DNA from: Planomonospora parontospora
Lineage (GTDB): Bacteria > Actinomycetota > Actinomycetes > Streptosporangiales > Streptosporangiaceae
Strand: one strand, 5' to 3'
Assembly (NCBI RefSeq): GCF_014647935.1
Contig: NZ_BMQD01000004.1
Length of the DNA stretch: 64,000 bases
Shown here: one piece after another, positions 30,890-38,304 of the stretch
Layout of the letters: every line of letters starts with the position of its first letter
How positions within the stretch are numbered: position 1 is the first letter of the stretch
The notes under the pieces: model-generated
Database searches by the model: none
What the model was told of the DNA's origin: nothing
What the model saw: only the letters and a program-made list of their open reading frames with translations
Translations under genes and position numbers: made by a program

Positions 30890-33112
30890 ATGGACGTCAT
30901 CTCCACCGGTTTCGGCGTGCTCCTGGCCGTCGTGCTGCTCGTCGCCATCGGCGTGATATTCATGATCACGCGCCTTTTCCACAAGGTCGAACAGGGCAGG
31001 GCCCTGATCGTCTCGAAGGTCAACAAGGTCGACGTCACCTTCACCGGCGCGGTCGTCCTGCCCGTGCTGCACAAGGCCGAGTTCATGGACATCTCGGTGA
31101 AGACCATCGAGATCGAGCGCTCCGGCAACGAGGGCCTGATCTGCCGGGACAACATCCGGGCGGACATCAAGATCACCTTCTTCGTCCGGGTCAACAAGAC
31201 CGTCGAGGACGTGGTGAAGGTCGCCCAGGCGATCGGCACCGCCCGCGCCAGCGACGCCGAGACGCTGCAGGAGCTGTTCAACGCCAAGTTCTCCGAGGCG
31301 CTGAAGACGGTCGGCAAGCAGCTCGACTTCGTCGACCTGTACACCCAGCGCGACCGGTTCCGCGACCAGATCATCCAGGTCATCGGCACCGATCTGAACG
31401 GTTACAGCCTGGAGGACGCGGCGATCGACTACCTGGAGCAGACCCCGCTGAGCAAGCTCGACCCGGCCAACATCCTCGACGCCCAGGGCATCCGGAAGAT
31501 CACCGAGCTGACCGCGATCGAGCACGTGCGGACCAACGAGTTCCAGCGGCACGAGGAGAAGGAGATCACCCGCCAGAACGTGGACGCGCGGGAGGCCATC
31601 CTGGAGCTGGAACGCCGCCAGGCCGACGCGGAGATCAAGCAGAAGCGCGAGGTCGAGACCATGCGCGCCCGCGAGGAGGCGGAGATCGCCCGGGTCCGCG
31701 CCGAGGAGCGGCTCAAGGCCCAGGCCGCGGACCTGCGCACCCAGGAGCAGCTCGGCATCCAGCAGGAGAACCAGGCCCGGGAGATCGCGGTCGCGGCCAA
31801 GAACCGCGAGCGGGTCATCGCCATCGAGAGCGAGCGGATCGAGAAGGACCGCATGCTGGAGGTCATCTCCCGCGAGCGCGAGACCGAGCTCTCCCGCATC
31901 TCCAAGGACAAGGAGGTCGAGGGTGAGAAGCGCTCGATCGCCGAGGTGGTCCGGGAGCGCATCGCGGTCGAGAAGACGGTCGCCGAGCAGGAGGAGAGCA
32001 TCAAGCGCCTGCGGGTGGTCGAGGAGGCCGAGCGGACCCGTCAGGCCGTGATCATCCAGGCGGAGGCCGAGGCCCAGGAGAACCTGGTCAAGGACATCAA
32101 GGCCGCCGAGGCCGCCGAGGCCGCGTCCAAGCACAAGGCCCGCGAGGCCCTGGTGCTGGCCGAGGCGCGCCAGCAGGCCGCCGAGCTCGACGCCCGCGCC
32201 AAGATCCGCCTGGCCGAGGGCGTGCAGGCCGAGGCCGCCGCCGAGGGCCTGGCCGAGGTGCAGGTCGCCGAGCGCAACGCCGCCGCGATCGAGAAGGTCG
32301 GCCGGGCCGAGGCCGCGGTCGAGCGGGAGAAGGCGCTGGCCGCCGCCGAGGGCGAGCAGGCCAGGGCGCACGCCGTCGCCACCTCGGTGCGCGAGAAGCT
32401 CAAGGCGGAGGCCGAGGGCGAGCAGGCCAAGGCGCTGGCCGAGGCGGCCCGGATCGGCGAGCGGCTGAAGGCCGAGGCCGAGGGCCTCACCGAGAAGGCG
32501 GCGGCGATGGCCGCGCTGGACGACGCGAGCCGGGGCCACGAGGAGTACCGCCTCCGCCTCGACATGGAGAAGGAGATCCGCCTGGCCGGCGTCACCTCCC
32601 AGGTCAAGCTCGCCGAGGCGCAGGCGATGGTGCTCGCCGCCGGGCTGGAGAAGGCCAACATCGACATCGTCGGCGGCGACAGCGTGTTCTTCGACAAGCT
32701 GGTCGGCTCGGTCACCATGGGCAAGACCGTCGACGGCTTCGTGGAGCACTCCGACGTCGCCCGCGCGCTCGCCGGGCCGTACCTCGACGGGTCGCAGAGC
32801 CTGCCCGCCGACCTGACCCGGATCCTCGGCTCGCTGGGCAGCGGCGACGTGCGGGACCTGTCGGTCTCGGCGCTGCTGGTCAAGCTGATGAACGAGGGCG
32901 GCTCCGAGGGCGCCCGGCTGCGCGAACTGCTCGGCACCGCGGGCGGCGCGGCGCCGACGGTCACCGCGCCGCCGGTGGCGCCGGTGGCGTCCGCGGCCGC
33001 CGTGCCGCCGGTGACGACCACCGCCGCCGTGCCGGCCGTCGCGGTCGCCGACCTCGCCGACCGCGCCGATCTCACGGTGAACGGTCCGGTCGCCGACGCG
33101 GGCCGGGAGTGA
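30890..33112 (+). CDS. Flotillin-family SPFH/band-7 protein with a long E/A-rich coiled-coil extension
   Basis: It has an N-terminal TM segment and an SPFH domain (ALIVSKVNKVDVTFTGAVVLP...IEIERSGNEGLICRDNIRADI), followed by hundreds of residues of EA-repeat coiled coil. It is 740 aa. Confidence 0.9.
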   Translation: MDVISTGFGVLLAVVLLVAIGVIFMITRLFHKVEQGRALIVSKVNKVDVTFTGAVVLPVLHKAEFMDISVKTIEIERSGNEGLICRDNIRADIKITFFVRVNKTVEDVVKVAQAIGTARASDAETLQELFNAKFSEALKTVGKQLDFVDLYTQRDRFRDQIIQVIGTDLNGYSLEDAAIDYLEQTPLSKLDPANILDAQGIRKITELTAIEHVRTNEFQRHEEKEITRQNVDAREAILELERRQADAEIKQKREVETMRAREEAEIARVRAEERLKAQAADLRTQEQLGIQQENQAREIAVAAKNRERVIAIESERIEKDRMLEVISRERETELSRISKDKEVEGEKRSIAEVVRERIAVEKTVAEQEESIKRLRVVEEAERTRQAVIIQAEAEAQENLVKDIKAAEAAEAASKHKAREALVLAEARQQAAELDARAKIRLAEGVQAEAAAEGLAEVQVAERNAAAIEKVGRAEAAVEREKALAAAEGEQARAHAVATSVREKLKAEAEGEQAKALAEAARIGERLKAEAEGLTEKAAAMAALDDASRGHEEYRLRLDMEKEIRLAGVTSQVKLAEAQAMVLAAGLEKANIDIVGGDSVFFDKLVGSVTMGKTVDGFVEHSDVARALAGPYLDGSQSLPADLTRILGSLGSGDVRDLSVSALLVKLMNEGGSEGARLRELLGTAGGAAPTVTAPPVAPVASAAAVPPVTTTAAVPAVAVADLADRADLTVNGPVADAGRE

Positions 33113-38304: not shown

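Follow-up and report, generated by a model that had tools for sequence, protein, structure and literature searches.

A giant DUF3686-family protein with a predicted MoxR-type AAA+ module, encoded directly downstream of flotillin, is a candidate ATP-driven flotillin partner

We analyzed a stretch of 64,000 nucleotides from Planomonospora parontospora (contig NZ_BMQD01000004.1 of assembly GCF_014647935.1), hereafter the window. A three-gene operon lies on its plus strand, the strand of all features located below unless stated: a yqiJ-like gene (30236..30877), a yqiK-like flotillin gene (30890..33112) and the gene of a giant ATPase, hereafter the giant (33109..38304). Twelve nucleotides separate the first gene from the second, while the distance from flotillin to the giant is either -4 or +71 nucleotides, depending on the start codon of the latter. 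Together with the 4-nucleotide stop/start overlaps found in several actinomycete orders, this tight spacing is typical of co-translated complex subunits. The chromosomal surroundings are housekeeping in character (prfC, trehalose/glycogen genes and pilus genes), and a promoter and terminator scan of the locus revealed nothing beyond shuffle expectation.

The first gene encodes a DUF1449/NfeD-like protein of 213 aa with three predicted transmembrane (TM) helices and a small C-terminal beta domain that is OB-like. Its exact sequence is found in NCBI under the names 'OB-fold-containing protein' and 'DUF1449 family protein'. No direct sequence match was obtained in the copies of Pfam and PDB searched; a profile of 12 homologues aligned to E. 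coli YqiJ with an hhalign probability of 91.8% (E = 7e-7). With its multi-pass membrane region, its OB-like C-terminus and its position upstream of an SPFH gene, the protein fits YqiJ/DUF1449 as far as sequence can assign it.

The second gene encodes a protein of 740 aa, comprised of an N-terminal TM segment, an SPFH domain, a Glu/Ala-rich coiled coil of ~350 aa, a conserved C-terminal region and an Ala/Pro/Val tail. At full length it had no Pfam match at E ≤0.01; its N-terminal 303-aa fragment alone matched Band_7, scoring 27.4 bits against a cut-off of 23.6 over aa 32-175. Over aa 3-456 the protein shares 29% identity with E. coli YqiK (E = 2e-41); it is 79% identical to its Phytohabitans orthologue, and NCBI names it 'flotillin family protein'. 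These matches identify a YqiK-type flotillin/SPFH gene, as the preliminary description, made without database searches, had supposed. The positive-inside rule places the SPFH domain and coiled coil of flotillin in the cytoplasm, along with the OB domain of the YqiJ-like protein. Since no TM segment was detected in the giant (maximum Kyte-Doolittle 19-mer score, 1.43), all three proteins would share the same compartment.

The ORF of the giant, 1731 aa at its longest, was present as previously claimed. It is a true gene and not a chance ORF of GC-rich DNA, because its GC content by codon position is 0.75/0.50/0.98, a protein search returned more than 6,400 homologues, and a 2002-aa antisense ORF (32041..38049) is explained as its shadow. 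A P. parontospora protein of 1706 aa (P0001), named 'DNA repair ATPase', is 100% identical to it. The preliminary description had placed the start codon within the flotillin stop. A candidate GTG (33109-33111) indeed overlaps the TGA (33110-33112) in a GTGA at 33109..33112, but it may not be the start used in Planomonospora: the NCBI annotation begins 25 codons downstream, at an ATG (M26; 33184..33186) with GGGGAG 10 nt upstream, and gives 1706 aa. Nor is the overlap a conserved trait. When two loci with an in-frame stop after the GTG (L018 and L019) were left out, an in-frame GTGA overlap was counted in about 18 of 78 orthologous loci, all from non-Streptomyces actinomycetes, and it is missing from Streptomyces and from other phyla. 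The closest relatives can begin only at the overlapping GTG, which is the sole possible start in L021, L023, L031 and L070. The overlap is a trait of some lineages, not of the whole family.

Pfam comparison assigned the giant to the DUF3686/DUF7902 family, which NCBI calls 'DNA repair ATPase': it matched DUF3686 (PF12458) over profile positions 1-448 of 448 (E = 9e-225) and DUF7902 (PF25472) with E = 1e-28, while its scores against Pfam AAA and AAA_5 were barely over the cut-offs. Full-length relatives have the same architecture and fall in the same length class (~1,600-1,900 aa). AlphaFold2 models of the giant were confident (pLDDT 86 and 91), and they bear out the earlier outline of a beta-rich, propeller-like N-terminus followed by a helical middle with Gly-rich inserts. 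Family conservation begins at an N-terminal helix with the pattern GxYEVLRxRL...LNxxR (33253..33348, aa 49-80; helix 11-41 of the N-terminal model). It is followed by the core of DUF3686 (33364..34437, aa 86-443), in which the model and Foldseek indicate a propeller-like domain of ~28 strands; many of its polar residues, for example those in a GRHPH motif, are invariant. An elongated helical-bundle arm of ~420 residues comes next (34486..35748, aa 460-880) and includes DUF7902 (34987..35241, aa 627-711). A small conserved beta module, LGRHRFxVN... (35764..35883, aa 886-925), forms strands in both models; its G890 is invariant, and F894 and T919 are nearly so. No enzymatic domain was detected in the non-ATPase part of the protein, but with so many invariant polar residues in the propeller, the earlier label of a non-enzymatic scaffold is tentative.

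Two Gly-rich low-complexity inserts, at 35989..36108 (aa 961-1000) and 36469..36588 (aa 1121-1160), are modelled as disordered, with pLDDT below 50. The Gly-rich string quoted in the preliminary description lies in the first (aa 970-996). Occupancy among 59 diverse homologues was 0.22 for the first insert and 0.08 for the second, and alignment thus marks both as specific to the Planomonospora lineage. The layout of a propeller followed by a long helical arm is reminiscent of propeller-plus-solenoid membrane coats. Foldseek also found coat and scaffold proteins of this kind (Nup155 and clathrin), with a TM-score of only ~0.1, too low to imply homology.

The ATPase had been placed in the C-terminal ~300 aa. 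The module does lie in that region, and the figure was approximate: the AAA+ module occupies aa 1334-1560 (37108..37788) and is followed by ~170 helical residues (37789..38301, aa 1561-1731). This C-terminal helical domain is a candidate lid/sensor-2 region, with an invariant TEPPFRLQGSYRNM (aa 1611-1624) and invariant R1610 and R1622. All motifs quoted earlier were found. Walker A, SPPGYGKTT (aa 1371-1379; GYGKTT at aa 1374-1379, nt 37228-37245), conforms to GxxGxGK[ST]. In a 60-sequence alignment (A1), its P1373, G1374 and G1376 are invariant and the rest nearly so; in an AAA-only alignment (A5), S, P, P, G, Y, G, K and T are all invariant. Walker B, VLLYLDD (37408..37428, aa 1434-1440), keeps the Mg-binding Asp1439 and departs from hhhhDE at the catalytic Glu position, which is occupied by Asp1440 and is invariant across the family as DDIQH. 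A pre-sensor-1 beta-hairpin, QRRMEGVWNGRSRTYDL (37483..37533; hairpin at aa 1461-1474 in the model), precedes the sensor-1/MoxR-like signature RFAVCMAGNPY...ANRAD (37543..37629, aa 1479-1489 and 1503-1507). Little or no variation is seen in the sensor-1 Asn, the ANRAD Arg or the candidate Arg-finger residues R1460, R1505, R1610 and R1622. The ATPase motifs are nearly invariant across the family; degeneracy in most members would have counted against the preliminary reading.

The modelled module has the features of an AAA+ core: strand order beta5-1-4-3-2, a sensor-1 polar residue and a helical lid. Its best structural matches are the MoxR ATPases CbbQ and NorQ, followed by dynein and midasin. 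The model therefore favors the MoxR/dynein (AAA_5) clade, in agreement with the preliminary description, while PDB sequence searches with the whole protein, an 88-sequence profile and an AAA-only profile matched only over a ~40-residue P-loop stretch and so cannot decide between the MoxR and classical AAA clades. The Walker B Asp and the absence of the usual partner fit the assignment less well. MoxR ATPases usually work with a VWA/MIDAS partner, commonly encoded next door. Searches of the giant, flotillin, the YqiJ-like protein and their neighbors in the window detected no VWA domain, and no gene for one is among the conserved neighbors of the family; the invariant partner is instead flotillin. 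The giant further differs from the MoxR family (CbbQ, NorQ, RavA; Pfam AAA_5) in its N-terminal propeller and helical extension of 1,300 residues and in its helix-2 insert, a conserved 18-residue segment after beta2 (GPALGHxVTSxDP...) that is modelled as a loop with no hairpin. Sequence similarity to that family is marginal (25 bits). Features of active MoxR ATPases that the giant retains include sensor-1, its Arg residues and, in the model, the pre-sensor-1 hairpin. Dynein and midasin (Rea1/Mdn1) are eukaryotic and carry six AAA modules per chain, as opposed to one here, and the homology seen to them is confined to the AAA module. As modelled, then, the giant is a soluble cytoplasmic protein with a propeller-like binding domain, a helical arm and a single C-terminal AAA+ module.

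Grouped at 50% identity, the DUF3686 giant family forms ~900 clusters, with members from at least nine phyla, and its conservation is ~70% over 1,700 aa across actinomycete orders. Streptomyces, Myxococcus, Proteus mirabilis and the P. fluorescens plasmid pQBR103 are among the experimentally tractable hosts that carry it. In Proteobacteria, Bacteroidota and Deinococcota the distribution is patchy and often on megaplasmids. No homologue was found in E. coli by distant blastn, a DNA-against-DNA comparison that is weak evidence, and none on viral contigs. Our literature search on DUF3686/PF12458, or on flotillin/SPFH proteins with a MoxR-type ATPase, found no description of the family.

A flotillin gene lies directly upstream of the giant, on the same strand, in all 88 loci for which upstream DNA was available, from at least nine phyla, which bears on the question, raised in the preliminary description, of whether homologues are always flotillin-adjacent. 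As far as gene order can tell, the coupling to flotillin could hardly be stronger. The sample, mostly actinomycetes, consisted of the window, locus L001, 77 genome loci, five distant members (Vibrio, Verrucomicrobiales, Acidobacteriota, a marine MAG and a PilZ-fused form) and loci from Pseudomonas pQBR103, Hymenobacter, Deinococcus and Proteus. A YqiJ/DUF1449 (NfeD-like) gene precedes flotillin in most loci, and unbiased clustering of neighbors returned flotillin and the YqiJ-like gene as the only conserved partners. Three other candidates were rejected. Three Gram-negative loci (L086, L088 and L089) have PspA/IM30 genes that adjoin the triad or lie close to it, which fits a membrane-stress role, but PspA is missing from all actinomycete loci and was not accepted as a core component. 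Neighboring PP2C, N6-methyltransferase-like and Ser/Thr kinase genes, considered as Pgl/BREX-like parts, recur in just one other of 80 loci, that of Streptosporangium (L003). An ORF of 244 aa that precedes the operon in certain Streptomyces loci, and resembled a second NfeD-like cluster, is an out-of-frame artefact. Scattered associations were also observed: dynamin-like and IniB genes near the Phytohabitans locus, TelA near the Vibrio locus, a GGDEF gene upstream in Deinococcus and C-terminal PilZ fusions in some relatives of the giant.

The yqiJ-like and flotillin genes are homologous to the yqiJ-yqiK operons of E. coli and Shewanella (SO1376-SO1377) and have identical order and orientation. 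The flotillin described here is ~190 aa longer than YqiK, and its C-terminal regions do not align to it. The E. coli operon stops after flotillin, with sibD/ibsD downstream, and that of Shewanella has a terminator behind SO1377 (PMC1468410); in the loci of the giant family, by contrast, the third gene is always present. SPFH cages have been found functionally paired with AAA+ machines at the membrane: HflK/C works with FtsH (PMC13220708), and prohibitin with m-AAA (PMC13376388). Both of these partners belong to the classical AAA clade, are anchored by TM segments and carry a protease domain, whereas the giant is soluble, is placed in the MoxR clade, has no protease domain and shares an operon with its SPFH gene. 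Flotillin forms cages (PMC11260169), and a QmcA-YbbJ cage is cited in PMC13086221. Staphylococcal FloA/NfeD needs no ATP to stabilize unfolded proteins (PMC11222466); there is room, then, for a partner that is driven by ATP. Vps4/ESCRT-III and PspA (IM30) offer a conceptual analogy only, in that an AAA+ ATPase there serves to remodel a protein polymer bound to the membrane; AAA+ clade, polymer and domains all differ.

We propose that the giant uses ATP to remodel the flotillin/NfeD cage or the clients of that cage, a reading to which we give about an even chance. It is suggested by the flotillin adjacency in 88/88 loci with no other conserved neighbor save the YqiJ-like gene, by an AAA+ fold that is nearest to the remodelling chaperones CbbQ/NorQ and has invariant or nearly invariant motifs, and by the precedent of HflK/C-FtsH and prohibitin-m-AAA. 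Its substrate, its contact with flotillin and its oligomerization we infer as follows; the physical assembly with flotillin and the loading or unloading supposed in the preliminary description are likewise conjecture. The giant would most likely oligomerize via its AAA+ module, as MoxR ATPases do. The propeller and arm would dock onto the cytoplasmic cage of the cognate flotillin, together with the YqiJ-like OB domain. ATP binding and hydrolysis would then remodel the cage or the proteins it holds, by opening, disassembly or client release. In its fullest form, this would be a ~1.1-MDa ring of the MoxR/dynein class that grips the flotillin/NfeD cage with its propellers and arms and opens, closes or dismantles it on ATP turnover, in at least nine phyla; we hold this detailed version only tentatively, as less likely than not. 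Against remodelling speak the absence of a VWA/MIDAS partner, the Walker B Asp, the helix-2 loop and the absence of PspA from actinomycete loci. The adjacency of the genes could also reflect mere co-regulation of the giant and flotillin.

Alternatively, flotillin might be a mere anchor or platform, and the giant a mechanochemical device like dynein or midasin that acts on another membrane target in an envelope-stress response; possible targets include damaged bilayer, polymers of the PspA type and other protein complexes. We consider this unlikely. An AAA_5-class fold that comes after a long helical 'linker' would suit such a device, as would the PspA/IM30, dynamin-like, IniB and TelA neighbors described above, but none of these neighbors is conserved, flotillin is the sole invariant partner and no membrane-binding element was detected in the giant.

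The invariant Asp at the Walker B Glu position raises another point, since it may make the AAA+ module a slow switch and not a motor. On this basis, the giant could be a nucleotide-gated scaffold that hydrolyzes ATP slowly and controls the assembly of a large, static propeller and helical coat at flotillin domains; in some lineages, second messengers would regulate it. The ~1,300 residues of conserved non-ATPase architecture, the Nup155 and clathrin matches, the PilZ fusions and the Deinococcus GGDEF gene can all be read in this way. Yet an Asp is still able to support hydrolysis, the sensor-1, Arg and hairpin features are those of active MoxR ATPases and the coat-protein TM-scores are too low for homology, so that we rate this explanation as improbable.

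Still less probable is an anti-phage or conflict system, in which flotillin, anchored in the membrane, would act with a giant NTPase to sense or abort infection. The patchy and often megaplasmid-borne occurrence in Proteobacteria, Bacteroidota and Deinococcota, a Vibrio copy among HipA, RNA-ligase, NUDIX and TelA genes, and a weak match of the PP2C neighbors in the window to the PADLOC candidate PDC-M21C point in that direction. PADLOC was nevertheless negative for the core proteins: the giant had only sub-threshold P-loop matches (mad8, E = 0.0017; IetA, E = 0.005), and flotillin and the YqiJ-like protein had no match at all. No nuclease, protease or toxin domain that could serve as an effector was found, and the absence of the family from viral contigs, its ~70% conservation across actinomycete orders and the housekeeping context of the locus likewise argue against defense. 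The DNA repair ATPase of the Pfam DUF3686 and NCBI records is almost certainly a misnomer: weak P-loop matches to RuvB and LexA, DinB and RadC genes near two loci can be cited for it, but no DNA-binding, nuclease or recombination domain was found, nor membership of a repair-ATPase family (RuvB, RecN, SbcC).

Flotillins occur from bacteria to humans, and recent work has shown that they build closed membrane cages. To our knowledge, no ATP-consuming partner of flotillin has been described, whereas HflK/C has FtsH and prohibitin has m-AAA. Our analysis corrects the misleading 'DNA repair ATPase' name, for which we found no supporting evidence and which is carried by thousands of records, and gives model-based folds to two Pfam domains of unknown function, DUF3686 and DUF7902. 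The genetic locking of the giant to flotillin in every genome examined suggests a concrete candidate for an ATP-driven flotillin partner. If the ring-motor version is true, flotillin microdomains would have their first known energy-dependent regulator.

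The giant operon consists of a YqiJ/YqiK SPFH pair with, as an extension, a dedicated AAA+ partner of giant size. A YqiJ/DUF1449 gene (30236..30877), encoding TM helices and, at the C-terminus, an OB-like domain, is followed by a YqiK-type flotillin gene (30890..33112) and, directly downstream, by the giant ATPase ORF (33109..38304, plus strand, 1731 codons). All 77 genome loci with upstream DNA, those of Myxococcus, Corallococcus and three non-actinobacterial MAGs among them, had a co-directional flotillin homologue immediately before the giant. This arrangement recurred in Phytohabitans and five distant members, as well as in pQBR103, Hymenobacter, Deinococcus and Proteus. 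With the window included, flotillin adjacency, which the preliminary description had proposed to check, was present in 88 of 88 loci. The YqiJ-like gene occurred in most loci and was lacking from one Acidobacteriota locus and roughly a dozen of the Streptomyces loci, while all-against-all clustering of neighbouring ORFs revealed no other widely shared neighbour gene. A 4-nt stop/start overlap between flotillin and giant was seen in ~18/78 loci, all of them non-Streptomyces actinomycetes; elsewhere the two genes were ~40–430 nt apart. Absence of this GTGA overlap from orthologous loci had been named as an argument against the coupling; adjacency is general and the overlap is not, and the argument therefore holds by half. 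The yqiJK operons of E. coli and Shewanella (PMC1468410) have two genes, whereas the present operon adds the giant AAA+ gene; a distant DNA search for the giant gave no match in E. coli. In one marine MAG, a 93-aa Gly/Ala-rich (glycine-zipper-like) ORF lies between the flotillin and giant genes (L086 7625-7906).

Because long chance ORFs arise in GC-rich DNA, codon-position GC was checked for the giant. GC content in the window is 65–78%, and an antisense ORF of 2002 aa (32041..38049, minus strand) opposite the genes for flotillin and the giant exceeds the real gene in length. This ORF is a shadow of GC-rich coding DNA, and in this window length by itself does not show an ORF to be a gene. The plus-strand ORF has codon-position GC values of 0.75/0.50/0.98, an actinomycete coding signature that its neighbour genes share, and a database search returned >6,400 relatives. 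The 1731-aa ORF first described from the sequence is a real gene on both counts, and each motif quoted from it was found in its place. The best relative (100% identity, 1706 aa, Planomonospora parontospora) is named ‘DNA repair ATPase’. The start was said to be embedded in the flotillin stop. GTG 33109 does overlap the flotillin TGA, but NCBI starts the gene at ATG 33184 (M26), which has GGGGAG 10 nt upstream. Since the nearest relatives (Streptosporangium L003, Herbidospora L021/L023, Acrocarpospora L031 and Nonomuraea L070) have no start before the conserved region other than the overlapping GTG, both starts are possible. The 25 extra residues between them are low-complexity and unconserved.

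The giant belongs to the Pfam DUF3686/DUF7902 family, with DUF3686 at aa 64-509 (E 9e-225) and DUF7902 at aa 627-711. Two AlphaFold2 models, built from an alignment of 88 sequences from actinomycetes, Vibrio and many other lineages, were confident (aa 861-1731, pLDDT 90.8, pTM 0.85; aa 40-960, pLDDT 86.3). After a conserved N-terminal helix (aa 49-80) they predict ~28 beta strands spanning aa 86-443, then ~420 residues of long antiparallel helices and a small beta module at aa 886-925. Next come another helical domain, which two disordered Gly-rich stretches interrupt, a second small beta unit, a long helix, the AAA+ alpha/beta core and a helical C-terminal domain. The beta-rich N-terminus, helical middle, Gly-rich inserts and C-terminal ATPase originally read from the sequence are thus all seen in the models. 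Judging from a 60-sequence alignment, in which their occupancy is 0.22 and 0.08, the Gly-rich stretches are lineage-specific insertions. No TM segment was found in the giant, which is a soluble, cytoplasmic protein. The propeller-like domain holds many invariant or near-invariant polar residues: the HPH motif (within GRHPHIS, aa 242-248, window 33832..33852), E311, R315, D330, E380/D381 and H437. These exceed what a passive scaffold needs and suggest a defined ligand or partner site.

Structurally the giant is a MoxR/AAA_5-class AAA+ protein, though an atypical one. Overlapping Pfam AAA and AAA_5 matches (aa 1367-1492; 26.5 and 25.0 bits) barely passed their cut-offs, and sequence profiles against the PDB matched the P-loop only and did not discriminate clades. 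In the model, Walker B and sensor 1 are separated by a beta-hairpin. Unlike typical MoxR/AAA_5 ATPases, the giant has a DD Walker B, a 1,300-residue extension and no VWA partner, none having been detected in the giant, its upstream partners or its neighbours by Pfam and neighbour clustering. Asp stands in for the catalytic Glu of Walker B throughout the family (hhhhDD-IQH; DDIQH at aa 1439-1443, window 37423..37437, invariant). The DDIQ string also occurs in DnaA-type initiators, which are slow nucleotide switches. MoxR ATPases are remodelling chaperones (CbbQ/O, NorQ/D, RavA/ViaA).

An exhaustive HMMER search with aa 45-720 yielded 912 clusters (50% identity), in which full-length members consistently measure ~1,600–1,900 aa. 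Named members come from Actinomycetota, Gammaproteobacteria (Vibrio, Reinekea, Pseudoalteromonas, Proteus, Pseudomonas plasmid pQBR103), Myxococcota, Acidobacteriota, Verrucomicrobiota, Bacteroidota, Bacillota (Vallitalea, Mobilitalea), Deinococcota and Armatimonadota; none was found in viral contigs. Conservation was highest in the AAA+ region (mean identity 0.6–0.77 to diverse members). Its motifs are invariant or nearly so across members, and therefore the concern that they might be degenerate in most of the family falls. A C-terminal PilZ domain is present in relatives P0343, P0352, P0358, P0361 (aa 1755-1829), P0365, P0367-P0369, P0371 and P0387 and at locus L087, a subset including myxobacterial and metagenomic members, and suggests c-di-GMP control in these proteins. 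In Deinococcus (L090), the triad is closely preceded by a GGDEF gene.

The wider surroundings vary. Two PP2C phosphatase genes flank the operon (28999..29841, plus; 38314..39180, minus), followed by an N6-DNA-methylase-like gene (39196..41211, plus) and a Ser/Thr kinase gene (41239..42132, plus). This set is common to the window and Streptosporangium (L003) alone among the loci compared, and could represent a local module of regulatory or Pgl-like type; both PP2Cs weakly match PADLOC candidate PDC-M21C. A PspA/IM30 gene stands immediately upstream of the triad in the marine MAG (L086 4108-4797) and on a Hymenobacter plasmid (L089 2884-3588), and ~4 kb upstream of it, ~7 kb from the ATPase gene, in a yjf-like cluster of pQBR103 (L088 1-260); none was found within 10 kb of the triad in actinomycete loci. 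In Phytohabitans (L001 15422-19720), membrane-stress genes for a dynamin-like GTPase and IniB follow closely behind the giant, on the other strand, an arrangement not conserved in other loci. The Vibrio chagasii triad (L083) sits among RNA ligase, HD/KTI12-like kinase, R2K, HipA, TelA, NUDIX and NAD-salvage genes, which looks like a variable or defence-type island, in contrast to the housekeeping context in the window. The window also carries a type IV pilus-like cluster (43813..56479, plus) with two T2SSE ATPases, T2SSF, PilM, a pseudopilin with He_PIG Ig domains and a ricin-lectin protein. Three consecutive alpha-amylase-family genes of TreZ/TreY/GlgX-like domain composition (9990..16326, minus) have a 1175-aa SARP/AfsR-like regulator (18321..21848, minus; Trans_reg_C, BTAD, AAA_16/NACHT) nearby.

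The giant, then, is a soluble protein with a MoxR-class AAA+ module and conserved nucleotide-site motifs, and its gene shares an invariant operon with a flotillin gene. The positive-inside rule puts the SPFH and coiled-coil regions of the flotillin on the cytoplasmic side, together with the OB domain of the YqiJ-like protein. We propose, at about even confidence, that the giant would form a ring via its AAA+ module, bind the flotillin/YqiJ cage through its propeller and arm, and use ATP to remodel the cage or free its clients. This proposal draws on the shared cytoplasmic side, the remodelling role of MoxR ATPases, and precedents among SPFH cages. SPFH proteins form cages on membranes (PMC11260169; for QmcA-YbbJ, see the summary in PMC13086221); two such cages work with AAA+ proteases (PMC13220708, PMC13376388), and in staphylococci FloA/NfeD keeps hold of unfolded proteins in an ATP-independent manner (PMC11222466). 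Flotillin could instead do no more than anchor a stress-response motor whose target lies elsewhere, which we consider doubtful. The DD Walker B and the PilZ fusions would fit a nucleotide-gated static scaffold, an unlikely reading overall, and it is quite improbable that the triad is a conflict system. A DNA repair ATPase, as the database name has it, is very hard to credit, since RuvB models score ~20 bits against cut-offs near 290 and neither a DNA-related domain nor literature support for the name was found. Among about 8 million papers searched, none of them subscription-only, no paper dealt with the giant's family or with a flotillin-linked MoxR ATPase. The interest of the operon, with the giant as putative cage remodeller, is that it suggests a way in which flotillin cages may be regulated, and one that can be tested.
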